Positions 25,607-56,798 of a DNA stretch of 64,000 bases are shown here, piece after piece; the first letter of the stretch is position 1; every line of letters begins with the position of its first letter. Location: positions 135,899 to 199,898 of the forward strand of contig CAWCPD010000003.1 of assembly GCA_963797465.1 (NCBI GenBank), read 5' to 3'. Source of the stretch: an uncultured Actinomycetota bacterium. GTDB lineage: Bacteria; Actinomycetota; Thermoleophilia; Gaiellales; Gaiellaceae. A program made the position numbers and the translations under genes. The notes beneath the pieces are model-generated. The model had not been told where the DNA came from, did not search any database, and was given only the letters and a program-made list of their open reading frames with translations.

Positions 25607-25924
25607 CTGTGGACGAGAAGACACGATCTTGGCGCGGTTTCGTGACGGACACGTTGCAGTTTCGGCGGTAGGCTCGATCGCATTGGGGCGGGAGGTGGGT
25701 TACCCGAACTGCAGCCAGCCTTTCGCCGGTCAGCGCCGCGGCGCCGAGGCGGGAAGCTGTGGGCGAATCGGCAACTGCAGCCAGCCTTTCGCCGGTCAGC
25801 GCCGCGGCGCCGAGGCAGGTGGCTGTGGGCGAATCGGCGCACATCCGACACGCTTCTGTCACAGACACGTAACGATTTCGGCGGTACGCTCGACCGCATC
25901 GGGGTGGGAGGTGGGTACCCGAAC
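25607..25924. repeat. composite repeat: two ~103-nt X copies flanking a 66-bp x2 tandem repeat
   Basis: X1 25607-25709 and X3 25823-25924 (both CTGTGG...GGGAGGTGGGT(T)ACCCGAAC). Tandem units 25710-25775 and 25776-25841 (TGCAGCCAGCCTTTCGCCGGTCAGCGCCGCGGCGCCGAGGC...), differing at only a few positions. Confidence 0.9.
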
Positions 25925-26090
25925 AACAGCCCGCTCGGAGGCTTCAAGCGCCAGTCCGGGACACGGCGCAAACCGGCGGTCCCGCCCGCTGACAGCGGCG
26001 TCCGACGCCGCTACACTCCCCGGCCAGTGAACCTGCTCCTTCCGTAAGCGAGGAAGCGACCGCGGCCGCCCGCCGCGCCAGCTTCCCACG

Positions 26091-26120
26091 GCCTCTCGCA
26101 CGAGAGGCTTTTCTGTCTCT
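26091..26120 (+). promoter_or_regulatory. terminator/attenuator-like hairpin plus U-run 13 nt before the leuS ATG
   Basis: GCCTCTCG-CA-CGAGAGGC (26091-26108) followed by TTTTCTGTCTCT. There is no Shine-Dalgarno between it and ATG 26133. Confidence 0.5.
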
Positions 26121-26132
26121 AGGCCCCGAAAC

Positions 26133-28569
26133 ATGGACGCATACGACCCTCACGCAATCGAGCGCAAGTGGCAGCAGGTCTGGGACGAGGCCGGCGCCTT
26201 CATGACCCCGAATCCGGCCGATGCGGCCGCCGCCGAACAAGACAAGGCGTACGTGCTCGAGATGCTGCCGTATCCCTCGGGCGAGCTCCACATGGGCCAC
26301 GTCCTGAACTACACGCTCGGCGACGTCGTCTCGCACGTGCGCCGGCGGCGCGGCTTCTCGGTCCTGCGGCCGATGGGCTACGACGCCTTCGGCCTCCCCG
26401 CCGAGAACGCCGCGATCCGCGAGGGCGGCCATCCGCGCGAGGTGACCGAGCGCAACATCGAGGCGATCCGCGGCCAGATCAAGCGCATGGGCTGGTCGAT
26501 CGACTGGACGCGCGAGGTCTCGACGCACGATCCGGACTACTACCGCTGGACGCAGTGGCTCTTCCTCAAGCTCCACGAGGCCGGGCTCGCCTACCGCAAG
26601 GCCGCGCCGGTCAAGTGGTGCCCGAACGACCAGACCGTGCTCGCGAACGAGCAGGTGATCGACGGCCACTGCGAGCGGTGCGGCGCGGAGGTCGAGGCGC
26701 GCAACCTCGAGCAGTGGATGTTCAAGATCACCGACTACGCCGACCGCCTGCTCGACGACATGGCGATGCTCGAGTCCTGGCCGGACCGCGTGCTCACGAT
26801 GCAGCGCAACTGGATCGGCCGCTCCGAGGGCGGCGAGATCCTCTTCCGGATCGAGGAGCTGGACGAGGACGTGCCGGTGTTCACGACCCGGCCCGACACG
26901 CTGTTCGGCGCCACCTTCTTCGTGCTCGCGCCGGAGCATCCGCTGGTCGAGCGCTTCGCCGAGCGCGCCGAGAACGGCGACGAGATCCGCGCCTACGCGC
27001 GCCACGCGGCGGCCGAGAAGAGCGAGGAGCGCCTCGGGCGCGAGCAGAAGACGGGCGTCTTCACGGGCCTTACGCCGTCAACCCGGTGAACGACGCGCGG
27101 ATCCCGATCTGGGTCGCCGACTACGTGCTGATGGACTACGGCACCGGCGCGATCATGGCCGTGCCCGCGCACGACGAGCGGGACTTCGCCTTCGCCGAGA
27201 CGTTCGGACTCCCGATCGTGCACGTCGTCGTGCCCGCGGACGGCATGCCAGACGAATCCGTCGCTTACGTCGAGCACTCCGAGAACGAGGTGCTGGTCAA
27301 CTCGGGCGAGTTCACCGGCATGCCGGCCACCGAGGCGAAGCGCGCGATCGTCGACGTCGCTCGCCGCGCGCGGCCTCGGCAAGCCCGCGATCAACTACCG
27401 CCTGCGCGACTGGCTGCTCTCCCGCCAGCGCTACTGGGGCTGCCCGATCCCGATGATCCACTGCGAGCGCTGCGGGATCGTCCCCGTGCCCGAGGACGAG
27501 CTGCCGGTCCTGCTGCCCGAGGTCGACGACTTCCTGCCGAAGGGCCGCTCGCCGCTCGCGGCCGCGGAGGACTGGGTCAACGTCTCGTGCCCGTCGTGCG
27601 GCGGCGAGGCGCGCCGCGAGACCGACACGATGGACACCTTCGTCGACTCGTCCTGGTACTTCCTGCGCTACACCGATCCGCACAACGACGCAGGCGCCGT
27701 TCGATCGCGGGATGGTCGACTACTGGCTGCCGGTCAACCAGTACATCGGCGGGATCGAGCACGCGATCCTGCACCTGATGTACGCGCGCTTCTTCACGAA
27801 GGCGCTGTACGACCTCGGCATCATCGGCTTCCAGGAGCCGTTCGCGCGACTGTTCAACCAGGGGATGATCTACCGCTTCGGCGCGAAGATGTCGAAGTCG
27901 AAGGGGAACATCGTCGCGCCCGACGAGCTGCTCGAGCAGTACGGCGCCGACGCGCTGCGCCTCTACATCCTCTTCATGGGCCCGGCCGACCAGGACAAGG
28001 AGTGGCAGGACACGGGCGTCGAGGGCACGTCCCGCTTCCTGCACCGGCTCTGGCGTGTCGTCAGCGAGGAGCTCGAGCGCGAGCCGACCGGCGTCACGAC
28101 CGGCACGCCGCTCGCGCGCAAGGCGCACGAGACGATCGCGAAGGTGACCGACGACATCGAGCGCCGGTTCGTCTTCAACACGCCGGTCGCGGCGGTGATG
28201 GAGCTCGTGAACGAGCTGTCGAAGGCGCCCGACGACCCGGCGTCGCGGTTCGCGGCCGAGACGGCGGTGTCGCTGATCCAGCCGTACGCGCCGCACGTCG
28301 CCGAGGAGCTGTGGTCGGCGCTCGGCCACTCGCGCCTGTGGGCCGAGCCGTGGCCGGTCGCCGACGAGTCGCAGCTCGAGCGCGACGAGATCGAGCTCGT
28401 CGTGCAGGTGAACGGCAAGGTCCGCGACCGGATCCGGGCGGCCGCCGGCCTGCCCGAGGAGGAGCTGATCGCGGTCGCGAAGGCCTCCGAGAAGGTGCAG
28501 GCGCACCTCAACGGGCGCGAGCCGCGCGCCTTCGTCGTGCCGGACAAGCTCGTCAACTTCGTCGTCTAG
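26133..28569 (+). pseudogene. leuS: leucine--tRNA ligase, three frame disruptions (~27069, ~27357, ~27690)
   Basis: [58 protein letters not shown] and KMSKSKGN motifs lie in four successive ORF-track frames (26133.., 26168.., 27453.., 27712..28569). Confidence 0.9.
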
Positions 28570-28737: not shown

Positions 28738-28921
28738 TAGGCGCGCGGCCGTCGGGTCGCTCGACCGGCGCCCCCGTGAGACACGTTCCGCCGCGGCCGA
28801 AGTCCAGGACGAGGGAACGCGAGGCGGTGGGCACACGGGCGCAGACGCGCCTGGCCGGTCGGGCGCGAGCGAGACGTCGACCGTCCGGGGTGGGCGCTGA
28901 GCCGGTGGACCTGCTGTGGAT

Positions 28922-28965
28922 GAATCGTCACGCTCTCGGCACGCCTCCGTCACAGACACGTCACA
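28922..28965 (+). repeat. array of 11-bp-phased hexamers (copy C)
   Basis: GTCACG@28927, GGCACG@28938, GTCACA@28949, GTCACA@28960. Ends 23 nt before the comEA ATG. Confidence 0.85.
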
Positions 28966-28987
28966 CCTTTCCCGGCAGGCTGGGCAG

Positions 28988-29572
28988 ATGCCGACCTTCA
29001 CGCTCTCCCGCCGGCACGCGCTGCTCGCTGTCGTGTGCGTTCTCGTGGTGCTGCTGGCCGCGTCGCGGCTCGTCTCCGCGCCGCGCTCGGTCGCGCCCAC
29101 CGAGGCGAGCCCGCTCGTAGCGGCGCCTGCGGTGTCTCCGCCCGCGCCGAGCACGGTCGCAGTTGACGTCGAGGGAGCGGTGCGGCGGCCGGGTCTCTAC
29201 CACCTCCCGGCGGACGCGCGGATCGCCGACGCGATCGCGCGTGCCGGCGGCACGACCCGCCGTGCCGACAAGACGCTGGTCAACCTTGCGGCCCCACTCG
29301 CTGACGGGGAACAGGTGCTCGTTCCCCGGCTCGGGCTCGGCGGTGCCTCCGCGGCCGGAGCGTCGGGCCCGTCGCCGACCGCGCCGGTAGACCTGAACTC
29401 GGCCACGGTCCAGCAGCTCGACACGCTGCCCGGCGTCGGCCCGGTGACGGCGCAGAAGATCGTCGACTACCGCCGCGTGCATGGGCCGTTCACGTCGGTT
29501 GACCAGCTCGACGCGATCTCGGGAATCGGGCCCACGCGCATCGAGAACCTCCGCGCGCACGTGGTTCCATGA
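28988..29572 (+). CDS. comEA: competence protein ComEA (SLBB + helix-hairpin-helix DNA-binding)
   Basis: ATG 28988, N-terminal TM segment. C-terminal [19 protein letters not shown]...[12 protein letters not shown] HhH repeats. Confidence 0.85.
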
Positions 29573-32446: not shown

Positions 32447-34072
32447 GTGACCACCTCCGGTCCGGGTGAAGGCGCCGGTCCCGGCGCCACGCCGGACGGG
32501 CCGCCGTTCACCCCCGGCCACGCTCGCCGGCTCGCCTGGTCGACCGCCATCTTCTCGTTCGCGACCGGCATCTCGCGCGTGCTCGGCCTCATCCGGGAGA
32601 TCGTGGCGAAGAACTACTTCGGCGTCGAGGGCAAGGTCAACGCATTCCAGATCGCGTTTCTCGTCCCGAACACGGTGCGCGCGCTCGTCGCCGACACCGC
32701 GGTCTCGTCCGCCTTCGTGCCGGTCTTCAGCGACCTGCTCGAGAAGGGCGAGCGCAAGCGCGCCTGGCGCGTCGCGTCGAGCCTCCTCTGGCTGATGCTG
32801 CTCGGGCTCGGGGCGCTCACGGCGCTCTTCATCCTCGTCGCGCCGCTCGTGATGCCGCGGCTCTACCCCTATGACCACGACCTCGTCATCGGCCTGTCGC
32901 AGCTGCTCTTCCCGATCGTCGCGCTGCTCGGTGCCTCGGGGATCATCGTCGGGATCCTCAACACGTACGACGAGTTCGCGGTCCCTGCGCTCGCACCCGT
33001 CGCCTGGAACCTCGCGATCATCCTCGGGCTCGTCCTCGGCGTGCCGCGCGCCGACACGGCCGACGGCAAGCTCTATGTCTACGCCGGCGCGATCCTCGTC
33101 GGCACCGTGATTCAGGTGCTGCTTCCCGTGCCGTGGCTGCGCGGGCGCGGCGGCCGGCTCGAGCTCGTGCTCGACTGGCGCGACCCCGCGGTTCGCCAGG
33201 TGCTGAAGCTGATGCTGCCGGTTTCGCTCGGCCTGGGCCTCATCAACATCAACGCGTTGATCGACGGCGTGATCGCCGCGAACCGGATCAATGCCGACAT
33301 CGGCCCGTCCGCGATCGACGCGGCGTTCCGGATCTACATGCTCCCGCAGGGGATCTTCTCGGTCGCGGTCGCGACGGTGCTGTTCCCGTCACTTTCCCGC
33401 TTCGCCTCGCGCGGCGACCTCGTCGGCTTCCGCGGCACGGTCTCGCTCGGGGTGCGGCAGATCGTGTTTCTGCTCGTCCCGGCGAGCATCGTCTGCGCGG
33501 TGCTCGCCGAGCCGCTCACCCGGCTGATCTATCAGCGCGGCGCGTTCACGCCCGGCCAGACCCCGGTCGTGGCCGCTTCGCTCGCGGCGTTCTCCCTCGG
33601 GCTCACGTTCAACGGGACGATGCTGATGCTGAACCGGGCGTTCTTCAGCCTTCAGTCGAACTGGGTCCCGACGCTCGTCGCGCTCGGGAACCTGTTCGTC
33701 AACGTGCTGCTCGACCTCGCGTTCGTGCCGCTCGGCGTCTGGGGGATCCCGCTCGCGACCTCGCTCGTCAACATCGCCGGGACCGCGACGCTCCTCGTCC
33801 TGCTGCGCCGCCGCGTGGGCCGGATCCACTTCGGCGAGATGGCAAGCTCCTCGGTCCGGATCGTGATCGCAGCACTCCTCGCAGGCGGAGCCGCGTTCGG
33901 CGTCTGGTACGGGCTGGACGACGCGTTCGGCCGCGGGCTCGCCGGCCAGCTCGTCTCCCTCGTCCTCGGACTGTCGATTGCCGCCGTCGTCTACATCGGG
34001 GCGTGCCTCGTCCTCCGCGTCCGCGAGCTCGACACGCTCCGTTCGCTGAGCTCGCGTCTCAGCCGCACCTGA
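32447..34072 (+). CDS. murJ: lipid II flippase MurJ (MviN)
   Basis: SRVLGLIREIVAKNYFG, AFQIAFLVPN, and 12 or more hydrophobic segments. GTG 32447 chosen as start (uncertain). Confidence 0.85.
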   Translation: MTTSGPGEGAGPGATPDGPPFTPGHARRLAWSTAIFSFATGISRVLGLIREIVAKNYFGVEGKVNAFQIAFLVPNTVRALVADTAVSSAFVPVFSDLLEKGERKRAWRVASSLLWLMLLGLGALTALFILVAPLVMPRLYPYDHDLVIGLSQLLFPIVALLGASGIIVGILNTYDEFAVPALAPVAWNLAIILGLVLGVPRADTADGKLYVYAGAILVGTVIQVLLPVPWLRGRGGRLELVLDWRDPAVRQVLKLMLPVSLGLGLININALIDGVIAANRINADIGPSAIDAAFRIYMLPQGIFSVAVATVLFPSLSRFASRGDLVGFRGTVSLGVRQIVFLLVPASIVCAVLAEPLTRLIYQRGAFTPGQTPVVAASLAAFSLGLTFNGTMLMLNRAFFSLQSNWVPTLVALGNLFVNVLLDLAFVPLGVWGIPLATSLVNIAGTATLLVLLRRRVGRIHFGEMASSSVRIVIAALLAGGAAFGVWYGLDDAFGRGLAGQLVSLVLGLSIAAVVYIGACLVLRVRELDTLRSLSSRLSRT

Positions 34073-34284
34073 TTTCGGGGAACGACCTCGAACGGACGCG
34101 CGGTGCTCCCGAGTCCCGCGCTCGCCGCCGGTCGAACGACGCGAACGGATCGACCTCATCCGTCCACGAGTCCCGAGACGGCCGAACCGCCCATGTCCAA
34201 ACCGGCCAGGATTCGCGCAGTCCCCCGCCCTTCTGGGTGGGGGCCGACCCGGCCGCCCTCGGCGGCTGACGATACCGGGGAAGC

Positions 34285-34323
34285 GCGCACGTGTCCGTGA
34301 CGAAAGCGTGCCGATTGTGGAAC
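34285..34323 (-). repeat. array of 11-bp-phased hexamers (copy D, reverse orientation)
   Basis: Plus-strand GCGCAC@34285, CGTGAC@34296, CGTGCC@34307, TGGAAC@34318. The reverse complement matches the GTCACG/GGCACG units of the other copies. Confidence 0.8.
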
Positions 34324-34484
34324 TTTCGACGAGCGGTCGGCGTGGCGCCCGCTCGCCGCGGCCGGCCAGCCGTCGGCACGCTGCGACTCGGCGCCACGAC
34401 CTCACCCACGCGGAGTGCGCGCGAGAGACGCGCCACCCTCGATCGGCGCGCGGTTCGATTCGAGCGACCCTGGTCGGCCACCGC

Positions 34485-36307: not shown

Positions 36308-38104
<1,797 letters not shown>

Positions 38105-38518
38105 CGAGCGCGTCGACGTCTGCGTCCGAGCCGAGCGTCGCGAGGCGATCGAGCCCTCCGCGCGACCGGCATCTGAACCTCCGGACGAGCACGCCTGAAC
38201 CCGCGCAGGCGGCACGGTCGCGACGCGTCGTGGCCGATCGGCCGAGAGCTCCGTGCGCGTCGCGTCCGAGGATACGAGCGAGCGGCGAGTCGGTCGAGGC
38301 CGTCGCGCGGCGGGCGGAGCGAGGTACGCTCGTACATCGGCGTCGTGGCGGCCTGCGACTCGGCGCTCGGATTCGCGGCGCGACGGCGCGACCGGCGTCG
38401 TCGATCGCCGGCAAGGCGCGGAGCTCGTCGTACTCTCGGATCCCGGCATATCGCCGGCGATCGAGTCGTCGCGCGGCTCACTGGGATCGACGCGTCGTCG
38501 CGAGCTCGACGGGCGCGC

Positions 38519-39648
38519 GTGACGGCGCACGCATCTGTACGTCCACCTGCCGTTCTGCGCGCACCGCTGCGGCTACTGCGACTTCGTCACCGCGGTCGGG
38601 CGGCAGCGGCGAGCACTCGCGCTACGTCGACGCGCTGATCGCGGAGCTCGAGCTGGAGCGGGGCTCGCTCGCGCCGCGGCTCGAGACGATCTTCCTCGGC
38701 GGCGGCACGCCGACCTTCACCGAGCCGGCCGCGCTCGAGCGGCTGCTCGCCGCGCTGCCGGACGCCGACGAGGTGACGGTCGAGGCGAACCCCGAGACGG
38801 TCACGTCCGAACTGGCCAGGCTTCTGCAACGAAACCGTGTCAACCGTGTGTCAATAGGCGCACAAAGCTTCCACATGCACCTTCTGGACGTGTTGGAGCG
38901 GAGCGCGCGGCCGCAAGATGTTCGGCGTGCCGTTCACGTCCTCCGCGATGCGGGCTTCGACAACCTCTCGCTCGATCTCATCTACGGGATCCCGGGCCAG
39001 AGCGCCTCCGACCTCGCAGCGCGACCTCGCCGAGGCCCTGGCGCTCGAGCCCGAGCACCTCTCCGCGTACGAGCTGGAGGCGAAGCCGGGCACGCGCTTC
39101 ACGCACGCGCACGGCGCCGAGCTGGAACGCCAGGCCGAGTCGATGGAGTCCTACTTCGAGCTCGTCGTCGAGACGCTGACGGCGGCCGGCTATCGCTGGT
39201 ACGAGACGGCGAACTTCTGCCGGACGCCCGGGCGACGTCGACGGCGCCGCCGACGGGCGCGACCTGCGCTCGCGCCACAACCTCGGCTACTGGCTCGGGC
39301 ACGACTACCTCGGCGTCGGCGTGGGCGCGGTCAGCACAATCGAGAATCGGCGCTGGCGGAACGCCCCTTCGATCCGCCGCTACGTCGCCGCGCTCGAGGC
39401 GGGCCGATCGCCCGCCGCGCGAGCTCGAGGAGCTCTCGCCGGCGACGCGCGAGACGGAGCGCGTGATGCTGGGCCTGCGCCTCGACGAGCCCGTCGAGCT
39501 CGCCGGCCTCGAGGAGCATCCTCGACGCAGCGCGAGCTCGGGCGGCTCGAGCGGCTCGGCCTCGCGGAGCGCCGACGGGGACGGGCTGGCGCTGACGGCG
39601 CGCGGGCGCTTCCTCGGCGACGCCGTCACGGCGGCGTTGCTCGCCTGA
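38519..39648 (+). pseudogene. hemW: radical SAM haem chaperone HemW (HemN-like), at least 6 frame disruptions
   Basis: LYVHLPFCAHRCGYCDF, IFLGGGTPT, NRVSIGAQSF, IYGIPGQS and LSAYELEAKPGTRF are spread over several frames. Position after lepA is conserved. Confidence 0.8.
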
Positions 39649-39823
39649 GGCGTCGACACGGCGAAGCCGTGGCGACCCACGGTGGCGTGCGAAGCGTGGT
39701 GTGGCCGCTGCGCGCGACTGCACGACCTCGACCTGGCTCCGCTGGGTGGGGACGGATCGTCCCGCCGCCTTCCGGGGCCGCGGGCGGGCGCGCGATCGTG
39801 CAGCTCGCCTACCATGGCGCGGG

Positions 39824-40857
39824 ATGAGCACGCCGCTTCCCGACCGGCAGCGCGAGATCCTCTGCCGCGTCGTCGAGGAGTACGTCGCCACCGGGCAGCC
39901 GGTCGGGTCGAAGACGCTCGTCGAGCGGCACCGGCGTGCTCGTCTCGTCGTCGACGGTGCGTGCCGAGCTGGCGGAGCTCGAGCGGCTCGGCCTGCTCAC
40001 GCATCCGCACACCTCGGCGGGCCGCGTCCCGACCGAGGCCGGCTACCGGATCTACGTCGACGGGCTGCTCGCGCGGCAGGAGACGCGGCCGGCCGAGTTC
40101 TCGCTCGACCTCGCGGCGGCGCGCGCCGAGGTGGAGGAGGCGCTGCAGGCGACGACCGAGGTGCTCTCGCAGGTGACGCGGCTGCTCGCGCTCGTCTCGG
40201 CGCCACGCGCTCGAGGCCGCGACGGTGCGCCACGTCGACGTGCTCCAGCTGCAGCCGAACGTCGTGATCGTCGTCGTGATCACCTCGACAGGCGGCGTCT
40301 CGAAGCAGCGCTACACGTTCCCCGAGCCGGTCGACGTCGGGCTCGTGAGCTGGGTCGGCGAGTACCTGCGCGAGCGGCTGATCGGCACGCGGCTCCGGTC
40401 GCGCCTGCTCGCGCGCGCGTTCGACGAGCCGAGCCTCTCGCCCGGCGAGCGCGCGTTCCTGGCCGAGATCCGCGGGCGCGTTCGACGAGGTCGAGGAGGA
40501 GCGCCAGCTCTACGTCGGCGGCGCCGCGGGGCTGCTCGAAGACCTGCGCTCCGAGGAGATCGGCGCGTACCGCAGCCTCATGGACGCGCTCGAGAAGCGC
40601 GCCGCGCTGCTCGACGTGCTCGCGCACTCGTTCACGGTGCGCCGGCCGTTCGCGCGGGTCGGCGACGAGCTCGAGGAGTCCGGGCCTGCACGACCTCGCG
40701 CTCGTCGGCGCCACGTACGGGCTCACGAACCAGACGCTCGGCACCGTCAGCCTGCTCGGCCCGCTGCGGATGGACTACGAGAAGGCGCTCCGCTCTGTCC
40801 GCGTCGGCCGCGCACGAGCTCTCGCGCTTCGTCGAAGAGGTCTACGCGGCCGAGTAG
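39824..40857 (+). pseudogene. hrcA: heat-inducible transcription repressor HrcA, about 5 frame disruptions
   Basis: [55 protein letters not shown] and [15 protein letters not shown] lie in alternating frames (shifts near 39935, 40205, 40475, 40680, 40800). Confidence 0.85.
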
Positions 40858-40918
40858 CCCGCGAGCGCGGCCCGCGCCACGCTCGCACGCCCGCCGCCGC
40901 TGGCACGATACGGGCCGC

Positions 40919-42039
40919 ATGTCGGCGACCGAACGCGACTACTACGAGCTGCTCGGCGTCCCGCGCGACGCCGACGAGCGCGAGATCAAGAAGGCGTTCC
41001 GCGGGCTCGCCCGCAAGCTCCATCCGGACGTCTCCGACGATCCCGAGGCCGACGTGCGCTTCCGCGAGGTCTCGGAGGCCTACGAGGCGCTCTCGAACCC
41101 CGAGACGCGTCAGCTGTACGACCGCTACGGCCACGCCGGCCTCCGCTCGGGCGGCTTCAAGCCGACCCACTTCGATGCCGGCAGCCTCGGCGACCTCTTC
41201 TCGGCGTTCTTCGGCGACGACCTCTTCGGCGGGCGCAGCCCCGCGGCAGCGCGCGGCGCGGACGTTCCCGCCGAGATCGAGATCGACCTGGTCGACGCCG
41301 CCCGCGGCACGACGGTCGAGCGTCAAGCTCGAGGTCGCGGTGCACGTGCGGGACGTGCGGCGGCGACGGCGTCAAGCCGGGCACGAGCGTCTCGGTCTGC
41401 GCCGCGGTGCGGCGGCAACGGCCGGCTGCAGCAGGTCTCGCGCAGCATCTTCGGCGAGTTCATCCGCACAGCTGCCTGTCCCGAATGCCACGGCAGCGGC
41501 ACGCAAGATCGAGCATCCGTGCGAGACCTGCGCCGGCGCCGGGCGAACGCTCGAGGAGCGGACGCTCGACGTCGAGGTTCCGGCCGGCATCCACGACGGG
41601 CAGCGGATCCGACTCTCCGGCGAGGGCCACGCGGGCGCGCTCGGCGGGCGCGCCGGCGACCTCTACGTGGCGGTCCGCATCCGCCCGGACGAGCGCTTCG
41701 TGCGCGAGGGAAACGACATGTTCTCGCAGGTCGACCTCACCATCGTCCAGGCCGCGCTCGGCGCAACGGTCGCGCGTCGAGACCCTCGACGGCACGGTCG
41801 AGCTCGAGTTCGACCCGGGAACGCAGCCCGGCCAGGTGCGCGTCCTCCGCGGTCACGGGATGCCGGTGCTCCAGGGCTTCGGCCGAGGCGACCACCGCGT
41901 CCTCGTCAACGTCGCCGTCCCGCGGCGCCTGACCGACGAGCAGCGGCGGCTGCTCGCGGAGTTCGAGCGTCTGAGCGACGGCGAGACCTACCGTCCGGAC
42001 GAAGGCTTCTTCGAGAAGCTGAAGAGCGCGTTCCGCTGA
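40919..42039 (+). pseudogene. dnaJ: molecular chaperone DnaJ, about 5 frame disruptions
   Basis: J-domain DYYELLGV...HPDV, Cys-rich zinc fingers (CGTCGGDG, CxxCxGx[17 protein letters not shown]) and the C-terminal domain need frame switches near 41318, 41345, 41405, 41500 and 41772. Confidence 0.88.
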
Positions 42040-42782
42040 TCCGCGCCTCGATCCGCGTTCCGGTCGAGGCGGCCGAGGAGCTCCGCGCGCGGTTCGTCGA
42101 GCTCGCCCCGGAGGGGTTCGAGGAGGTCGAGCGTCCCGGCGAGCTCGAGCTGGCCGCGTACGGCGAGGCGGCCGGGCGCGTCCTCGCCGCGTTCCCGGAC
42201 GCGGCGCGGGGCGAGGTCGAGGCCGGATGGGAGGATCGCTGGCGCGAGTTCCACCGCCCGGTTCGCGTCGGCCCGCTCTGGATCGGCCCACCCTGGGAGC
42301 GTCCTCCGCCTGGAGCGCTCGCGGTCGTCGTCGACCCCGGCCGGGCGTTCGGGACGGGCGCGCATCCGACGACGCGCCTCTGCCTCGAGCTGCTGCTGGA
42401 GCTGCCGAGGACGAGCCTCCTGGACGTCGGCTGCGGGTCGGGCGTCCTCTCGATCGCTGCGGCCAGGCTCGGCTTCGGACCGGTGGTCGCGGTCGACCTC
42501 GAGGCGCCGGCCGTGGACGCGACGCGAGCGAACGCCGCCGCGAACGGCGTCGCAATCGAGGCACGCCTCGCCGACGCGCTCCTCGAGCAGTTGCCGCCGG
42601 CGGAGCTCGTGGTGGCCAACATCGCGCTTGGCGCGGTCACGGCTCTCGCCGCCCGCATCGATGCGCCGCGGCTCGTCAGCTCGGGCTACCTCGCCGGTGA
42701 CCGGCCCGAGCTCGAGGGATACGAGTCGCAGGACCGGCGCGAGCTCGACGGCTGGGCCGCGGACCTCTTCACGACCGGGTGA
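42036..42782 (+). CDS. prmA: ribosomal protein L11 methyltransferase
   Basis: [14 protein letters not shown] and [17 protein letters not shown]-binding motifs. There is no ATG/GTG/TTG near the N-terminus, so the start (CTG 42036, overlapping the dnaJ stop) is uncertain. Confidence 0.75.
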
Positions 42783-42808
42783 GGAGACCTCGCGCCTGTT
42801 GAAGAGAA

Positions 42809-42847
42809 GTCACCGAATCGGCACGAAGGCGGCACGGTTCGGTGACG
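42809..42847 (+). repeat. array of 11-bp-phased hexamers (copy H)
   Basis: GTCACC@42809, GGCACG@42820, GGCACG@42831, GTGACG@42842. The outer units also form the inverted repeat GTCACCGAA/TTCGGTGAC. Confidence 0.8.
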
Positions 42848-42866
42848 CCTGAGTCGATAGCGTGTT

Positions 42867-42892
42867 CCCAGGGGACGCGGGGGTCCCCTGGG
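42867..42892 (+). terminator. perfect 10-bp GC hairpin after prmA
   Basis: CCCAGGGGAC-GCGGGG-GTCCCCTGGG. No U-tract, so function as a terminator is tentative. Confidence 0.4.
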
Positions 42893-42972
42893 GCGCTGCT
42901 GCCGTCATTCCGAGAGGCCAGGGCGCAAGCGCAGGGTCGCCCCGTTTCGGCTTCCGCAGTAGCATCCGCGCG

Positions 42973-45484: not shown

Positions 45485-45689
45485 CCGCCGGCACGACCAG
45501 TTGCCGACTGGACGGACTCTCCCGATCGATGTCGTTCGAGCCGAGCCGGGTGCGGACGGCGGCTGTGCCGAGCTCGGCGAAACCGGCGTGCGCGCCGGCG
45601 TGGCTCCTCGCCTCCGCGCGTCCCCCACCGTTTCCCCACGTACCCCCAGGGGGGCGGGCGGCCCCCTGTATTCACGCTAGCGAGGATTC

Positions 45690-45739
45690 TGTGACGTGTC
45701 CGTGGCGGATGTGTGCCAACTCTGCGACGAATGCGTGCC
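45690..45739 (-). repeat. array of 11-bp-phased hexamers (copy E, reverse orientation)
   Basis: Plus-strand TGTGAC@45690, CGTGGC@45701, TGTGCC@45712, TGCGAC@45723, CGTGCC@45734. Confidence 0.85.
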
Positions 45740-46726
45740 GAACGGGGAACGACCTACACTGCGGCCGTGCAGGAAGTGCTGGACGTCTCGAACGAGGTTG
45801 CCGCCGAGTTGGCGGGGATGAGCGACGGTGTTCTCGAGGCGCTGCGCGATCGGCTCGAGTGCACCGTGCGCCTGCGGGGCAACCAGCTCACGCTCGAGGG
45901 CGACGACCTGCACGTCGAGGAGGCGCGCGAGGTGATCGCCGAGCTGGTCGAGCTCGTCGAGGGCGGGCACCAGATCGGAGCGCACACGGTCGACGCCGTG
46001 CTCGGCGCGCTCGACTCCGACCAGGACGTGCGCGAGGTGTTCGACGATGTCGTCTGGCGCCATCGCGGCAAGCAGATCGCGCCGAAGACCGTGACTCAGA
46101 AGGCGTACGTGGACGCGATCCGCCGCCGTACCGTCACCTTCGGGATCGGCCCGGCCGGCACGGGGAAGACGTACCTCGCGATGGCGCTCGCGGTCGCGGC
46201 GCTCCAGGAGCGCAAGGTCGCGCGGATCATCCTCACCCGGCCGGCGGTCGAGGCCGGCGAGCGTCTCGGCTTCCTGCCCGGCGACATGCTCGCCAAGGTC
46301 GACCCGTACCTGAGGCCCCTGTTCGACGCGCTCTACGACATGCTCGACCCGGAGCGCGCGAACACCTACATGGAGCGCGGCACGATCGAGGTCGCCCCGC
46401 TCGCCTTCATGCGCGGCCGCACGCTGAACGACAGCTTCATCATCCTCGACGAGGCTCAGAACACCTCCCCCGAGCAGATGCAGATGTTCCTCACGCGGCT
46501 GGGCTTCGGCTCCCGCGTGGTCGTCACGGGCGACGTGACCCAGGTCGACCTGCCGCGCGATCAGGCGTCGGGGCTGATTCAGGTGCAGGACATCCTCTCC
46601 GGGATCGACGACATCGCGTTCATCCGCTTCGGGCACCAGGACGTCGTCCGCCACAAGCTCGTCCAGCGGATCGTCGAGGCCTACCGTGAGCACGCGGAGG
46701 AGACCGGGACCGAGCGGAGCCGCTAG
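45713..46726 (+). CDS. phoH: PhoH-like ATPase
   Basis: Walker A GPAGTGKTYLAMA and IILDEAQNT. The longest-ORF start at 45713 lies inside repeat copy E, so the true start is probably ATG 45731 or later. Confidence 0.85.
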   Translation: MPTLRRMRAERGTTYTAAVQEVLDVSNEVAAELAGMSDGVLEALRDRLECTVRLRGNQLTLEGDDLHVEEAREVIAELVELVEGGHQIGAHTVDAVLGALDSDQDVREVFDDVVWRHRGKQIAPKTVTQKAYVDAIRRRTVTFGIGPAGTGKTYLAMALAVAALQERKVARIILTRPAVEAGERLGFLPGDMLAKVDPYLRPLFDALYDMLDPERANTYMERGTIEVAPLAFMRGRTLNDSFIILDEAQNTSPEQMQMFLTRLGFGSRVVVTGDVTQVDLPRDQASGLIQVQDILSGIDDIAFIRFGHQDVVRHKLVQRIVEAYREHAEETGTERSR

Positions 46727-47838: not shown

Positions 47839-47933
47839 ACGGCTGCGGATGGCCCGGCACGGGCTCACCCCGTCGTTCCCGAGACGGGGACACGGTCCAC
47901 GGCACCGCGGCTTTACCCGGGAAGACGGCGAGA

Positions 47934-47994
47934 GTCACCGTTTCGGCCCATATTTGGCACGCTTCCGTCCTGGTGTCTGACACCCGGACACGGC
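47934..47994 (+). repeat. array of 11-bp-phased hexamers (copy F)
   Basis: GTCACC@47934, GGCCCA@47945, GGCACG@47956, GTCCTG@47967, TGACAC@47978, CACGGC@47989. Ends 10 nt before the cdd ATG. Confidence 0.7.
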
Positions 47995-48004
47995 CGGAAG
48001 CGAC

Positions 48005-51284: not shown

Positions 51285-51462
51285 CTAGATCCTCCTCGTA
51301 GCGCAGCGCACGTGCGCCGGGTGTGCGGAGAGAAAGAGCGTGCTCCACGGTAGGTCTCGAGGCTGAGGATCGTTCCGGTGCGCGTCTGACCCGAATGAGG
51401 ATCGCGTAAAGATCCGCAAACACGCCGCGGCCGGCAGACGGGCAGCGTCGATACTTCAAGGC

Positions 51463-53181
51463 GTGCGAGGAGCCCGGATCGGCATGCGCTGGTGGCTTGC
51501 GGCCGTATTCGTTGCCATTGCGACGCTCACGGCGGTCCTGATCGCGGCCGTCTCGTCGCGGCAGGCCGACGGCGAGTTGCGCGCGAACGCCGAGAACATC
51601 GCGCTCGGAGCCGCCATCTCCGCCCGTTCGGCAGTCGAGCAGGCGGCGATCGACGGCAACCTCGTCGAGCAGCTGCCCTCGATCGGCGCCCGCCACAACG
51701 TTGCGCTCTTCGTCTTCTCGTCGAAGCGGCGGCTGCTCGCGCAGGCGCGGTACCGGAACGTGCGCTGGAAGGACGTGCCGGAGGGGGGCGCCGCGGTGCT
51801 GACCGCGCTCGGCGACCGGCGCTACGTGGCCGCGTTCAACGGCGGCCGTTCGACGCTCGTTGCGCTGCCGCTCGCCCGCAGGAAGGACGCGACGGTGCTG
51901 GTCGCCTACGCGCCGCGGCCGCCCTACGGGCCGTCGCTCGCGATCTTCCGTCACGACGTGATCCAGGCCTCGATCTACGCGGTGCTGATCGCGGCGTTGA
52001 CCGGGTTACTCGCCGCGACCCTGATTGCGCGGCGACTGCGCCGCATCGGGACCGCGGCCGCGGCGATCGAGCAGGGTGACTTCGCGCTCGAGCTCGAGCC
52101 CGGCCTGCATGACGAGATCGGCGACCTCGCGGTCACGATCGACCGCATGCGGCGCCGCCTGGGCGCGGCGTTCGAGCAGCTGAGCGCGGAGCGCGACCGG
52201 CTCGAGCGGCTGTTGGAGCAGCTGCACGAGGGCGTGCTCGCGGTCGACCCTCAGCTGCGCATCCAGTTCGCGAACGCGAACGCGCGGCTGCTCCTCGCCG
52301 ACCTCTCGCTCGAGAAAGGCTCTCCGCTTCCGGTGACGCACGGGGGGCTGCCGCTCCGGCGCGTCGCCGAGGGCCTCTTCATGCCCGGAGCCCCGGTCGC
52401 CGAGGCGCGCAGCCGGCGCGAGGACGGCGCGACGATCTCGCTCGTCGGCGTGCCGGCGTCGGCGTCGGACCTCGTGGTGCTCGTCTTCGCCGACATCACC
52501 GAGCAGGAGCGGCGCCGTCAGGCCGAGCGCGAGTTCGTCACGAACGCTTCGCACGAGCTGCGGACGCCCGTGACCGCGATCGCGAGCGCCGTCGAGGCGC
52601 TGCAGTCCGGCGCGCAGGACTCACCGGAGAGCCGTGAGCGCTTCATCGACCTGATCGGCCGCCAGGCGAAGCGGCTGACGCGGCTGTCGAGCTCGCTCCT
52701 GATCCTCGCGCGGGCGCAGACGCGGCAGGAGCAGGTCCAGCTCGAGCCGGTCGAGTTGCAGGCGCTTCTGCACGAGATCGCCGCCGCGAGCGAGCCGGCC
52801 GACGGCGTCGCGGTGCGCGTGGACTGCCCGCAGCCGGTGGTCGCGGTCGGGCAGCGCGACATCGTCGAGCAGGTGATCTCGAACCTCGTGGGCAACGCGC
52901 TCAAGCACACGACCGAGGGCGAGGTCGTCTTGCGGGCACGCCGGGTCGTCTCGGAGGCGGCGATCGAGGTCGCGGACACGGGGCCCGGGATCACGCCTGC
53001 GGTGCAGACGCGGATGTTCGATCGCTTCTACAGTCTCGAGATGAACGGACGCGGTTTCGGCCTCGGCCTCGCGATCGCCCGCGAGTCCGCCGAAGCGATC
53101 GGCGGCACCCTCACGATCGAATCCGAGCCCGGGTGCGGAACCACAGCGCGGGTCGTGCTGCCGGCGGCGACGGCCGGATGA
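51463..53181 (+). CDS. sensor histidine kinase (HAMP-HisKA-HATPase)
   Basis: N-terminal TM (MRWWLAAVFVAIATL), HAMP, H-box FVTNASHELRTPVT, G-box DTGPGI...GFGLGLAI. ATG 51484 is an alternative start. Confidence 0.85.
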   Translation: MRGARIGMRWWLAAVFVAIATLTAVLIAAVSSRQADGELRANAENIALGAAISARSAVEQAAIDGNLVEQLPSIGARHNVALFVFSSKRRLLAQARYRNVRWKDVPEGGAAVLTALGDRRYVAAFNGGRSTLVALPLARRKDATVLVAYAPRPPYGPSLAIFRHDVIQASIYAVLIAALTGLLAATLIARRLRRIGTAAAAIEQGDFALELEPGLHDEIGDLAVTIDRMRRRLGAAFEQLSAERDRLERLLEQLHEGVLAVDPQLRIQFANANARLLLADLSLEKGSPLPVTHGGLPLRRVAEGLFMPGAPVAEARSRREDGATISLVGVPASASDLVVLVFADITEQERRRQAEREFVTNASHELRTPVTAIASAVEALQSGAQDSPESRERFIDLIGRQAKRLTRLSSSLLILARAQTRQEQVQLEPVELQALLHEIAAASEPADGVAVRVDCPQPVVAVGQRDIVEQVISNLVGNALKHTTEGEVVLRARRVVSEAAIEVADTGPGITPAVQTRMFDRFYSLEMNGRGFGLGLAIARESAEAIGGTLTIESEPGCGTTARVVLPAATAG

Positions 53182-53867
53182 ACGCCCGCATCCTGCTCGC
53201 CGACGACGAGCGCGACATCCTCGAGCCGGTCAGCTACGCACTCAGCCAGCAGGGGTTCGAGGTCACGTGCGTGGAGGACGGCGACGCCGCGCTCGAGCGG
53301 GCGCGGTCGGGCGAGTTCGACCTGCTGCTGTGCGACGTGCTCATGCCGGGCACGCTCGGCACCGACGTGTGCCGCATCCTTCGCGCCGAGAGCGACCTGC
53401 CGATCATCCTGCTCACCGCACGGGACGCCGAGATCGACCGCGTGCTCGGGCTCGAGCTCGGCGCCGACGACTACATCACGAAGCCGTTCTCGTCCTCCGA
53501 GCTCGTGAGCCGTGTCCGCGCGCTGCTACGCCGCCGCGAGCTCGACCGGACGAGCGCCAGCGGCACGACGAAGAGCGCCGGCGGGCTCCGGATCGACTAC
53601 GCTCGGCATCTCGTCGAGGTCGACGGCAAGAGCGTGAAGCTGACCCCGTCGGAGTTCAACCTCCTCAGCCTGCTCGCCGAGGAGCCGGAACGCGTGTTCA
53701 GCCGCGCGCAGATCATGGATCACCTGTGGCAGACACCGCATGTCGGTGACCCGCGCGCGTGCGACGTCCACATCTCGAACCTGCGTCGCAAGATCGAGCG
53801 CGACCCGAGCCACCCGGCGCGGATCATCACCGTGCGCGAGTTCGGCTACAAGCTGATGCCCGTGTGA
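53178..53867 (+). CDS. OmpR/PhoB-family response regulator
   Basis: ATGA overlap. Receiver ILLADDE...LLLCDVLMPG, winged-helix LTPSEFNLLSLL...VREFGYKL. Confidence 0.88.
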   Translation: MNARILLADDERDILEPVSYALSQQGFEVTCVEDGDAALERARSGEFDLLLCDVLMPGTLGTDVCRILRAESDLPIILLTARDAEIDRVLGLELGADDYITKPFSSSELVSRVRALLRRRELDRTSASGTTKSAGGLRIDYARHLVEVDGKSVKLTPSEFNLLSLLAEEPERVFSRAQIMDHLWQTPHVGDPRACDVHISNLRRKIERDPSHPARIITVREFGYKLMPV

Positions 53868-54269: not shown

Positions 54270-54956
54270 TCAGGCGACGAGTGCGTAGCCGACGCCACGG
54301 ACGGTCACCAGGCGCTCGGGCGCCGCGGGATCGCGCTCGATCTTCCGCCGAAGCGCCGAGACGTGCACCTCGCATGTGTGCTCGTCGGCCGTGAACGTGC
54401 TGCCCCAGAGGTGCTCCATGATCTGGCGCCTCGAGTAGGCCGCCCCAGGGTCCGCGGCGAGCAGGCCGAGGATCTTGAACTCGGAGGGCGTCAATGACAC
54501 GACCTTGCCGTCGACCGACACCTCGTCGCGAACGAGGTCGACCTTGATCGCGCCGACGGTGCGGACGAGTTGCTCGTTCGCCGTCATGTCCAGCGCACGC
54601 CGGCGCAGCAGCGCGTGGATCCGGCCGATCAGCTCGGCCGCCGAGAAGGGCTTCGTGACGTAGTCGTCGGCCCCGAGGTCGAGCCCCGTGAGCAGGTCGC
54701 GTTCGGAGTCCTTCGCCGTGAGCATGATGATCGGCACGTCGCTCTGCGACCGGATCTGCTGGCAGGCCTCCTCGCCCGACAGCTTCGGCAGCATCAGGTC
54801 GAGGACCACCAGGTCGATCGCGTGCGTCAGCGCGGCTTCGACCGCCGCCTCGCCGTCGGTGGCGACCTCGACTTCGAACCTCTCACGCTCGAGCGCATAG
54901 GTGAGGCCGCGGACGAGCGAGGGCTCGTCGTCGACTACGAGGATACGCGGACTCAT
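54270..54956 (-). CDS. OmpR/PhoB-family response regulator
   Basis: In-frame ATG 54956 (MSPRILVVDDEPSLV), D in LVVLDLMLP, winged-helix LTPSEFKILGLL...VRGVGYALV. Confidence 0.88.
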   Translation of the reverse strand: MSPRILVVDDEPSLVRGLTYALERERFEVEVATDGEAAVEAALTHAIDLVVLDLMLPKLSGEEACQQIRSQSDVPIIMLTAKDSERDLLTGLDLGADDYVTKPFSAAELIGRIHALLRRRALDMTANEQLVRTVGAIKVDLVRDEVSVDGKVVSLTPSEFKILGLLAADPGAAYSRRQIMEHLWGSTFTADEHTCEVHVSALRRKIERDPAAPERLVTVRGVGYALVA

Positions 54957-56798
54957 CGTGTGACTCCTTCTGTTGCGGTGGCGTCGGTCGCAGTGGCGAG
55001 GGTGATGCGGACGGTCGTACCTACAGTCTGCTCGGAGTCGAGCTCGATCTCGCCGCCGAGTGTTCGGACCGCCTCGCGCGCGATCGAGAGGCCGAGCCCG
55101 AAGCCGTCCGTCGCGGTCTCCGGCGCGGTAGAAGCGGTCGAAGATCCGTGCGCGGTCCGGCGCCGGGATGCCGGGGCCCGTGTCTGCGACCTCGATCACG
55201 ACGGAACCGTTCAGCTGGCGGCCGCGCATGGTGACGGTGCCGGCGTCGGTGTGCTGCATGGCATTCGTCGCGACGCTCGAGAGCGCTTGCTCGAGCAGGT
55301 CGGCGTCGCCGACGATCATCAGCGCGCTCGGGCAGTCGACGCCGATCTCGACTCCCTTGCGGTGGGGCAGCGACGCCGCGACCTGCTCGAGAAGCGGCGC
55401 CACCGGAACGACGCCGAGGCTCGGCAGCTCGTCGCGCGCGCCAGCGCGCGCGAGCACGAGCAGGGCCCGGGTCAGGCGCGTGAGCCGACCCGACTCGCGC
55501 GCGATCACCTCGAGGAACTCGTCGCGCGTCTCGGGCTCGTCCTTGGCTCCGGTCTGCAGCATCTCCACCGCGGTCACGATCGACGTGAGCGGCGTTCGCA
55601 GCTCGTGCGCCGCGTTCGTGGCGAACTCGCGCTGTACTCGTTCGTTGCGCGCATGCTCGGACTCGTCCTCGATCACGATGATCGCGTTCTCGCCGCCCGC
55701 TGTCGGCGGGATGCCCGCAACGAGCAGCGTCCGCTCACCATCGGCGATCCGGGTGTGGCTGGGAAGCCCGGTCGTGAAGAGCTCGTCGGCGAGAGCGCGG
55801 AGATCCTCGGCGGCATCCCCGGTGAGCGTCGAGACGTCAAGGCGATCCTCGACGCCGAGCAGCTCACGAGCATGGCCGTTTGCGAACTCGATGACCAGGT
55901 CGCGATCGACGAGGAGAACACCCTCGTTCAGCCGGTCGACCAGCCGCTCGAGCCGATCGCGGTCCTGCTCGAGTGTGTGGAAGAGCTCCTCAAGCTGGCC
56001 CCGCATCCGCTCGATCGACCCGGCGAGGCTGCCGACCTCGTCCGGGAAGCGGTCGTAGGAGTGCACGCTGAAGTCGCCGGCCCCGACCGCCTTCGCCGCG
56101 CTTGCGATGCGCTTCAACCGGCGCGCGGTCAGTGACGCGATCAGGAGCCCGAGCGCGGCGCCGGCCGCGAACGCGAGCAGCGCGGACTGGAGGAACTCCT
56201 GCCGTACGATCCCGAGTTGCTCGCGAAGCTCGGGTCGCAGCAGGTACGCGACGACGACGCGATCGTGCCCGCCGTGGATGCCGAGCCCGATCACGAAGGC
56301 CGAGCCGTCGCGGCGACCGACGATGTACCGCCGCCCGTTGAGCGCGGTCTGCAGCGCTTCTCGGCCACCGGGCACGCTCGCCCACACCACCCCCTGCGAG
56401 CGGAGCGGCGTCAGCGGCCGTCCCTCGGAGTCGAAGACGAAGAGCGCGAGGTGCCGGCGCTCCGAGATCGCGACGGCTTCGTTCGCGATCTCGTCCGGGG
56501 AGTCGATGCGCTTCAGGTTCTCCGAGGCCGCGACCGTGTTTCCGACCGCAAACTCCTCGGCATACGTGCGGAACGCCCGTTCGGAGCGGTTGCTGAGCAC
56601 GGCGACCACGGCCACGGCCGTGAGGCCGGCGACCGCGGCGAACGCCAGCCCGAGCCACCACCGCATCCCGATCAGTTGGCGGGAAGGGGGGTCGAGCGTC
56701 GGTGAGGACGAGTTGCTCAAAGGCTCTTCAGGCGAGGACTGCCTCCCCTCCACGAGCGAAAAGCTGCGCGCAGGCTCGACGCTTTCGTTCGTGGTCAT
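54953..56798 (-). pseudogene. sensor histidine kinase, single frame disruption near 55118-55127
   Basis: H-box FATNAAHELRTPLT, DTGPGIP. After FDRFYRA the G2 box (ETATDGFGLGLSIAREAV...GVTR, stop overlapping the RR ATG) is in the -1 frame, which merges HK and RR into one 842-aa ORF in the track. Confidence 0.8.

Follow-up and report, generated by a model that had tools for sequence, protein, structure and literature searches.

Hexamer arrays phased 11 bp apart as the upstream half of a probable promoter cassette in uncultured Gaiellales

Intergenic arrays of short direct repeats occur in a 64,000-nucleotide stretch (the window, ~70% G+C) of contig CAWCPD010000003.1, from an uncultured member of the Gaiellaceae. 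The repeats are hexamers of the type G(T/G)CAC(A/G), phased exactly 11 bp apart, and the arrays that they make up very probably form the upstream half of an oriented promoter cassette of ~65 bp. Seven copies, lettered A to G, lie between 25.6 and 48.0 kb of the window. The arrays belong to a module that is common to many uncultured Gaiellales and that includes a -10 element and often a conserved G-rich 5' leader, parts that a preliminary description of these repeats had missed. To our knowledge, Gaiellales are among the most abundant soil Actinobacteria, are almost entirely uncultured, and have had no description of their transcription control. The module offers a sequence-defined regulon that can be searched for in any metagenome-assembled genome (MAG), amounting by rough extrapolation to tens of promoters per genome, and taking in DNA-uptake genes (comEA, comF and comM), aminoacyl-tRNA synthetases, and purine and histidine genes.

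The arrays were scored as four successive units against G[GT]CAC[GA], with a maximum array score of 24. At a spacing of 11 bp, 11 positions in the window score at least 20 and the best reaches 24, while at each spacing from 6 to 10 and from 12 to 17 bp only 0 or 1 position reaches 20. Shuffling, a check that the preliminary description had proposed, gave a mean of 0.24 positions scoring at least 20 over 200 dinucleotide-preserving shuffles, with none above 21. The spacing and shuffle controls together rule out a chance feature of GC-rich DNA. Scores of at least 20 fall only at non-coding sites that had already been listed (25836, 28916/27, 42798-42820, 47934 and, in reverse, 45679-45712), and all seven copies do lie outside coding sequence, as had been asserted. 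The hexamer coordinates given earlier are also accurate; in copy C, for example, GTCACG begins at 28927, GGCACG at 28938, and GTCACA at both 28949 and 28960. In addition, a degenerate 24-nt pattern that covers two units together with the -35 region has five matches in the window, where 0.01 would be expected. The CTGTGG and GAATCG lead-in described as common to several copies is real, and constitutes an additional, weaker unit, U0 (GTGGanGAATC). Two places put forward as weaker relatives (39680-39720 and 51305-51352) score only 12-15 of 24, are detected by neither of the two hidden Markov models (HMMs) introduced below, and are best taken as background. Tandem Repeats Finder is silent on the arrays because their units are too divergent.

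When the seven copies are aligned in one orientation, they form a family of ~70 nt with the consensus GTCACAcwTTC for U1, G(G/T)CACgnTTCC for U2, GTsACAGACAC for U3, GTGCGCcTTTC for U4 and cccGnTAnnnT for U5. With the comEA start codon as +1, the hexamers lie at about -61, -50, -39 and -28, and a TAnnnT -10 element occupies -12 to -7. A -10-type hexamer stands in this same register within U5 in six of the seven copies (TAGGCT, TACGCT, CAGGCT, TATCGT, TAGCGT and TAGCGT); five of the six fit TAnnnT, the exception being C (CAGGCT), and G has no such hexamer. Exactly 17 bp upstream of the -10 hexamer, U3 holds a -35-like cAGACA or cGGACA, a block that is missing in E. The units within any one copy all have the same orientation, head to tail, and number four to six per array (six to seven in F). 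T is enriched at unit positions 8-10 of U1, U2 and U4. Information is highest in U3 and U4 and lower in U1 and U2, and U0 is found in a subset only. The window copies are ~64-80% identical to each other, with the differences, at ~20-35% of positions, falling mostly at unconstrained ones.

The occurrence of arrays in both orientations had been taken as an argument against a simple promoter. That argument fails, in that each strong copy has its own TAnnnT at a fixed distance and on the same side of the array. Indeed, D and F carry their own -10 on the other strand, and the reversed copies are thus whole modules facing the opposite way.

How would such a promoter be used? The comEA mRNA is predicted to be leaderless, its ATG lying 6 nt after the -10 of module C. 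Start codons stand 6-7 nt after the module -10 at comEA in the window and in two other genomic stretches (L041 and L085; comparison stretches are cited by such numbers), and at comM-like genes in L029, L034 and L084. Such distances, with the -10 in its constant position, fit a bacterial promoter of the sigma-70 type. In leadered cases, the module is followed by a 5' untranslated region ending in a ribosome-binding site and start codon (purN in L027, era in L035). Many loci also have another leaderless promoter, of the plain kind (TAnnnT, a gap of 6-8 nt, and ATG or GTG), 80-240 nt downstream of the module and nearer the gene, making the module the distal promoter, and probably the regulated one. 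Examples from other genomes are hutH, purD, hisC and a sugar transferase gene; those in the window are mtaB, with TAGCAT at 42960-42965 downstream of E and ATG at 42973, and leuS, with a proximal -10 TACACT at 26012-26017. In a set of 73 ordinary leaderless promoters from the same Gaiellales DNA, no position between -62 and -13 carries more than 0.16 bits, and the array is therefore an add-on rather than a general polymerase feature. The result agrees with the pattern in Actinobacteria, whose promoters are generally without a -35 consensus. We also considered and rejected a general housekeeping promoter, given only seven copies in 64 kb and the lack of upstream signal in the 73 ordinary promoters.

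A test of conservation in relatives had been proposed earlier, and it comes out in favor of the module, which recurs in many uncultured soil Gaiellales (Thermoleophilia). One genome per GTDB species was scanned with the pattern GRCRCRNNTYYGYSACRGACACGT, giving 93 stretches, of which ~70 come from MAGs labelled Gaiellaceae, Gaiellales, Thermoleophilia or 'uncultured Actinomycetes'. Another 20 were classed as non-Gaiellales by record title and missing downstream -10 (Streptomyces, Lysobacter, Phycisphaera, Acidobacteria and others); these look like chance matches, ~17 being expected, on a rough estimate, from the information content of the pattern. The flanks outside the search pattern are conserved across 72 Gaiellales copies, with an upstream unit GTCACAcwTTC (G 86%, C 89%), a G at -14, and TAnnnT at +38 to +43 (T 86%, A 86%, T 88%). 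An HMM built solely from the Gaiellales genome copies matches five window copies at 51, 51, 47, 44 and 34 bits, gives weak matches to E and G, and detects no further module in the 64 kb, leaving the total at seven.

This genome-copy HMM descends from a window-derived pattern, and a second HMM was built from metagenome arrays ascertained by their leader. For this independent ascertainment, metagenomes were scanned for the downstream leader alone (TCGGGGAGGAGGCCGGGCGAACC or CGCCTCGGGGAGGAGGCCGGGCGAACC), giving at least 120 stretches; among the leader matches listed, the array is present in 103 of 104 unique upstream sequences. Self-identity of the leader-found arrays is 0.40 at a lag of 11 versus 0.20-0.30 at other lags, and their information peaks at -39 to -18 (GTcACAGACACGtGCGccttTC) and at the -10. 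The HMM from these 103 metagenome arrays recovers the same number of window copies, with E-values of 3e-10 for D, 1.2e-9 for B, 6.3e-9 for C, 9.5e-6 for A and 6.4e-4 for F. The exact scan pattern matches only five of the 104 independently found arrays, so the genome scan greatly undercounts. Complete chromosomes hold one to three exact pattern matches each, and ~540 kb of other loci yield ~7 additional copies with scores of at least 28 bits; the sensitivity of the HMM is 37%. Per-genome copy numbers are rough extrapolations from such figures, which suggest tens of copies, perhaps up to ~100. The target genes are mixed: leuS, pheS, purD, purN, hisC, hutH, an arginase gene, rplS, hemD, comEA, comF, comM, a sugar transferase gene and era. 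A competence regulon, suggested by the presence of the module at comEA, comF and comM, was rejected as too narrow, since leuS, pheS, purD, purN, hisC, hutH, rplS, hemD and era have it too.

The individual copies can be laid out along the window. Module A (25609-25674, plus strand; 44.3 bits in the genome-copy HMM) is distal to leuS and has units U0 GTGGACGAGAA at 25609, U1 GACACGATCTT at 25620, U2 GGCGCGGTTTC at 25631, U3 GTGACGGACAC at 25642 and U4 GTTGCAGTTTC at 25653, followed by the -10 TAGGCT at 25669-25674 and the G-rich leader GGGGCGGGAGGTGGGTTACCCGAAC at 25685-25709. A minus-strand open reading frame (ORF) adjoining copy A had been labelled lysA, a label that we drop, as the ORF has no Pfam or NCBIfam match. 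Module B (25825-25890, plus; 51.3 bits) has listed unit starts at 25825, 25836, 25847 (U3, GTCACAGACAC), 25858 and 25869, the -10 TACGCT at 25885-25890 and a leader at 25901-25924. The distance from the -10 to leuS (ATG 26133) is 458 nt for A and 242 nt for B. Module C, the exemplar at comEA (28916-28990, plus; 47.2 bits), reads U0 GTGGATGAATC at 28916, U1 GTCACGCTCTC at 28927, U2 GGCACGCCTCC at 28938, U3 GTCACAGACAC at 28949, U4 GTCACACCTTT at 28960 and U5 CCCGGCAGGCT at 28971; its -35-like CAGACA is at 28953-28958 and its -10 CAGGCT at 28976-28981, followed by GGGCAG and the comEA ATG at 28988. Module D (34222-34334, minus; 51.0 bits), the best match to the independent HMM, lies in the convergent gap between murJ (which ends at 34072) and a nadR-like gene (which ends at 34485). 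Its units begin at 34334, 34323, 34312 (GGCACG), 34301 (GTCACGGACAC) and 34290 (GTGCGC), its -10 TATCGT is at 34274-34269, and its conserved leader GAGGGCGG..CCCCACCC..GGGCGGGGG runs from 34260 to 34222.

The remaining three copies are more divergent in one respect or another. Module E (42798-42893, plus) is a variant with an array score of 22/24 and weak HMM matches (10.7 bits; E-value 0.51). Its units are GTCACC at 42809, GGCACG at 42820 and 42831, and GTGACG at 42842; the -10 TAGCGT at 42858-42863 keeps the register, there is no rGACAC -35 block, and a hairpin follows at 42867-42893. Module F (45643-45750, minus; 34.2 bits) has six or seven units from 45750 down to 45685, including GGCACG at 45739, GGCACA at 45717, GCCACGGACAC at 45706 and GTCACA at 45695, with the -10 TAGCGT at 45679-45674 and a hairpin at 45668-45643. 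It is back to back with the leaderless promoter of phoH, and its upstream units extend over the -35 region of that promoter; the array at phoH is thus a reversed one, with F pointing away from the gene. The phoH promoter itself consists of TACACT at 45755-45760, 6 nt, and GTG at 45767, conserved in L001, L002, L097 and L098; the true phoH start is 18 codons downstream of the longest-ORF start, and the core promoter is kept even in array-less relatives. The degenerate array G (47934-47999, plus; array score 20/24, HMM ~10 bits) has GTCACC at 47934, GGCCCA at 47945, GGCACG at 47956, GTCCTG at 47967, TGACAC at 47978 and CACGGC at 47989, and ends 5 nt before the cdd ATG at 48005. The statement that most copies sit 10-130 nt upstream of a start codon is true of C and G alone, and fails for A, B, D and F; the E array proper (42798-42852) is ~120 nt, and the E -10 ~110 nt, from the mtaB ATG at 42973. 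Elsewhere in the window, TTGACACACGG and TTGACACGGTT make up two 11-bp-phased units (TTGACAC twice) at 38823-38855 on the minus strand, antisense inside a run-on ORF (37456-39648); this weak match in both HMMs (~6 bits) is probably due to chance.

What would read such an array? The preliminary description had pointed to OmpR/PhoB-type architecture, and the direct repeats, the exact 11-bp period, the hexamer with its T-rich 5-nt spacer and the four to six units are indeed of that kind. Given the repeats and their phasing, the fixed -10 register, the conservation in many Gaiellales and at orthologous genes, and the absence of the array from ordinary promoters, we infer promoter activity, protein binding and the family of the protein, all from sequence. 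The most likely explanation, which we favor by judgment rather than with assurance, is that an OmpR-type regulator uses the array as its operator, binds there as tandem dimers and recruits polymerase; that the bound protein belongs to the OmpR/PhoB family seems to us an evenly balanced question. A winged-helix regulator of the OmpR/PhoB type would bind the units cooperatively as two or three head-to-tail dimers, its recognition helices reading the G(T/G)CAC hexamers from the major groove and its wings reading the T-rich spacers from the minor groove. The dimer on the downstream side, situated over the -35, would then recruit RNA polymerase to a promoter that otherwise offers a -10 only, like others of the lineage. 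The module would drive leaderless mRNAs (comEA and comM-like genes) as well as leadered transcripts that start with a G-rich and possibly structured RNA.

Several points weigh against this explanation. Conservation is lower in U1 and U2 than in the two units after them, and the best-conserved block, -39 to -18, holds the -35-like hexamer and the spacer and could instead reflect direct contacts of sigma or of another protein. Array G is without a recognizable -10, and D and F are without an obvious gene to drive. The functionally mixed targets suggest no signal for the regulator to answer, with no pointer to phosphate, nitrogen or cell-wall control. No response-regulator gene was recognized among the ~40 downstream genes identified by eye, which yielded no cognate or autoregulated regulator. 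The regulators encoded in the window at 53178-53867 and 54270-54956 had been suggested as candidates, and this link is not borne out: by array score and both HMMs, neither of the two-component operons (51463-53867 and 54270-56798) has an array upstream. Both regulators are of the OmpR family and, among solved structures, are closest to RegX3 of M. tuberculosis (228 and 207 bits); against the NCBIfam MtrA model, in a comparison covering the window genes only, they score 217.6 and 221 bits, where the cut-off is 300. Their two neighboring operons (the second on the minus strand) are of the histidine-kinase to response-regulator type, with kinases that resemble PhoR, PnpS and WalK, and the minus-strand kinase and regulator read as a single 842-aa ORF.

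Perhaps polymerase alone could make use of the array, as a strong promoter without any dedicated transcription factor. Sigma region 4 would read cAGACA, and the alpha C-terminal domains would sit on the short T-runs at about -42 and -53, much as on a UP element, though a GC-rich one, or else the phased T-runs would bend the DNA. The -35-like hexamer is exactly 17 bp from the -10, many housekeeping genes are among the targets, and T-rich segments fall at -43 to -40 and -54 to -51, just where UP-element subsites are known in E. coli. It is difficult to see, however, why 73 ordinary promoters of the same organisms should then have neither a -35 nor an upstream signal. Moreover, the conserved positions form head-to-tail major-groove hexamers, one of them inside the -35/-10 spacer, where polymerase is not known to read a hexamer, and both E and the F copy of L097 keep phased hexamers without the -35 block. 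We consider an explanation by polymerase alone unlikely.

A protein from outside the OmpR/PhoB family might also occupy the array, or the region from -61 to -18 might serve mainly as a repressor site, one candidate being a WhiA-like GACAC binder acting with other factors. Four to six head-to-tail 11-bp units with T-rich spacers are, however, the signature of winged-helix tandem dimers, while repressor sites are more often palindromic, and the fixed -10 register and the gain or loss of whole 11-bp units fit contacts with polymerase on one face of the helix. These features make such an operator improbable in our judgment, even though GACAC is the most conserved pentamer (and is the motif reported for WhiA), the array spans the whole polymerase-binding region upstream of the -10, and the reversed array overlaps the -35 region of the phoH promoter.

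The history of the module bears on how it should be read. Orthologous genes of different species retain their copies (leuS, comEA, comM, hutH, hisC, hemD and phoH); the register of the comEA module is identical in the window, L041 and L085, and the orthologue of module A is present in a close relative, L060. The reversed phoH module, F, is common to the window, L097 (97% PhoH identity) and L098 (89%). In L098 this copy is shorter by exactly 11 bp, or one unit, and in L097 the rGACAC block is replaced and five phased GGCAC units are kept, changes that fit selection on phased units rather than on exact sequence. The PhoH relatives L001 and L002 (90-92% identity) have orthologous regions without the array, which led to an early suspicion of no conservation; it was dropped, as L097, L098, L060, L041 and L085 keep copies.

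Other copies have been gained. Copy B is recent, the product of a tandem duplication of ~216 bp that is specific to the lineage and missing in L060; inside it lies a 66-bp tandem repeat (25707-25838, two copies, 95% identical), likewise absent from L060. At G, in an alignment with indistinct junctions, the window shows ~83 nt that L097 lacks. The spacers in which E, F and G stand are missing where genes abut or overlap in L002, L096 and L098, and 27 of 28 nt of E recur in a copy upstream of era in L035 that is not its orthologue. The cluster prmA-mtaB-HIT-yqeY-phoH-ybeY-dagK-cdd-era is tightly packed in the relatives compared (L002, L096, L097 and L098); in the lineage of the window it is split by module-bearing spacers of 160-280 nt (42783-42972, 45485-45766 and 47839-48004), and in L035 a module stands at yet another junction, cdd/era. 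These comparisons suggest that promoter cassettes turn over, or are gained, at operon junctions.

Is the module then a cassette of promoter and leader that duplicates or moves, either in the manner of a MITE or through local duplication and gene conversion, with the repeats a by-product of its origin? The duplication at B, the extra DNA at G relative to a 97%-identical relative, the spacers of E, F and G that are absent where genes abut (L002, L096 and L098), the near-identity of E to the L035 era copy, and leaders that are near-identical across the loci of one genome would all be expected of such an element. Duplication explains the spread of the module, however, and not the exact 11-bp phasing or the -10 register. 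There are no terminal inverted repeats, the copies differ at ~20-35% of positions, and those at comEA, comM, hutH, hisC, leuS and phoH are stable at orthologous genes across species, so that an origin of this kind as the whole explanation has little to recommend it. Least credible of all is a role for the array at the level of RNA, be it as a structured leader or as a small RNA, or an origin by chance in GC-rich DNA: the arrays lie upstream of the predicted transcription start, their fold z-scores are -1.4 to +1.6 on either strand, they have no Rfam 15 match, and, with no inverted repeats, the REP/MITE and RNA-element alternatives that the preliminary description had left open are disfavored alike.

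Conserved G-rich leaders lie directly downstream of modules at 25685-25709, 25901-25924 and 34222-34260 (minus strand) of the window, in L010, L017, L026 and others, and in L099-L218. They fall into types, including GGGGAGGAGGCCGGGCGAACC (at least 120 metagenome stretches) and GAGGGCGG..CCCCACCC..GGGYGGGGG, and are near-identical across loci within a genome and different between lineages. The type to which the D leader belongs also occurs in L055 and L083. A search of Rfam found no match to the leaders even at E-values up to 5, and RNAalifold, applied to 14 leaders of the CCCCACCC type, found conserved sequence with no covariation. In L035, a GGGTGGGGG segment lies ~10 nt before the era ATG, so that CCCCACCC could sequester the ribosome-binding site. 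The leaders have the look of RNA motifs not yet catalogued. GC-rich hairpins that resemble one another (CAGGGG...CCCCTGGGG) begin 4-8 nt after the -10 of E, F and the leuS module of L041 (L041 ~2117-2150); the loop and parts of the stem of the E/F-type hairpin vary among the window, L097 and L098.

A bolder proposal is that arrays and G-rich leaders together make up one undescribed global control layer of Gaiellales, in which a regulator of several protomers would activate tens of distal promoters in each genome and the lineage-typical leader RNAs (GGGGAGGAGGCCGGGCGAACC...; GGGCGG..CCCCACCC..GGGYGGGGG) would constitute a new cis- or trans-acting class. We offer this as speculation, and think it doubtful. 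If it were true, the leader RNAs might be switches that sequester the ribosome-binding site, act as decoys, or interfere with the downstream leaderless promoter.

The genes around the arrays are leuS, comEA, comEC, murJ, a nadR-like gene, pnuC, lepA, hemN, hrcA, dnaJ, prmA, mtaB, a HIT protein gene, yqeY, an AAC(6')-like acetyltransferase gene, phoH, ybeY, dagK/PAP2, cdd and era, and then the two histidine-kinase/response-regulator pairs. The window PhoH is 85-97% identical to proteins from MAGs labelled Gaiellaceae. Before leuS, at 26012-26132, is a probable leucine leader-peptide attenuator: the -10 TACACT (26012-26017) is followed by a leaderless mini-ORF at 26027-26047 (GTG AAC CTG CTC CTT CCG TAA, V-N-L-L-L-P-stop; conserved in L060 as V-N-V-L-L-T-stop), then by a hairpin and T-run, GGCCTCTCGCACGAGAGGCTTTTCTGT, at 26090-26116 and the leuS ATG at 26133. 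Essential genes shift frame repeatedly, as in leuS (26133-28569, three frames), lepA (36396-38104) and 39936-42782, the last a 948-aa ORF that fuses HrcA, DnaJ and PrmA domains. These shifts are probably indel errors of a long-read MAG rather than signs of pseudogenes, and the non-coding arrays are unaffected.

How does the module compare with operators already described? Like UP elements and the upstream activating regions of stable-RNA promoters, it covers -40 to -60, is added to a core promoter and is helix-phased; unlike them, it is GC-rich, consists of sequence-specific hexamers rather than A/T tracts, and reaches through the -35 and the spacer. SARP proteins of the AfsR/ActII-ORF4 type, which have an OmpR-type DNA-binding domain, bind 11-bp direct repeats that lie over the -35, a few bp upstream of the -10. 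The module has the same direct repeats, 11-bp spacing and overlap with the -35, but SARPs act at few secondary-metabolite promoters, whereas the module stands at housekeeping genes, probably in tens of copies per genome and in many Gaiellales. MtrA half-sites are GTCACAgcg repeats in Mycobacterium and GtnAcC-n5-GTnAcn in Streptomyces, and the GTCACA hexamer with a 5-nt spacer (an 11-bp period) closely matches U1 and U3 (PMC13189361, PMC4285127), U2 of the module being G(G/T)CACG. Published MtrA sites differ in having two repeats (one dimer) at variable positions, where the module has four to six units in a fixed -10 register.

The PHO and GlnR boxes come close in architecture. The operators of Streptomyces PhoP consist of 11-nt direct repeat units, at least two of which are needed, and binding is lost at 10-nt spacing; operators of up to six units are filled cooperatively from conserved cores into degenerate extensions (PMC2275107). 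In cryo-electron microscopy structures, M. tuberculosis PhoP binds as 2, 4 or 6 protomers in tandem dimers, with sigma region 4 displaced from the -35 (PMC11825685), and a comparable GlnR complex is cited in the same paper. The module resembles these boxes in its 11-nt head-to-tail units, two to six in number, with a core, degenerate outer units and strict spacing, and in an operator that extends over the -35 of a promoter whose -10 is normal (PMC2275107, PMC11825685). The unit itself is different, G(T/G)CAC(A/G)nnTTC versus the GTTCACC of Streptomyces, and the module keeps a -35-like cAGACA inside unit 3. No pst, pho or gln genes are among the ~40 identified targets, a list that is incomplete and not systematic. 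To judge by architecture, then, the operator would be of a known type, OmpR/PhoB-like, and it is the module, in an uncultured lineage, that is new.

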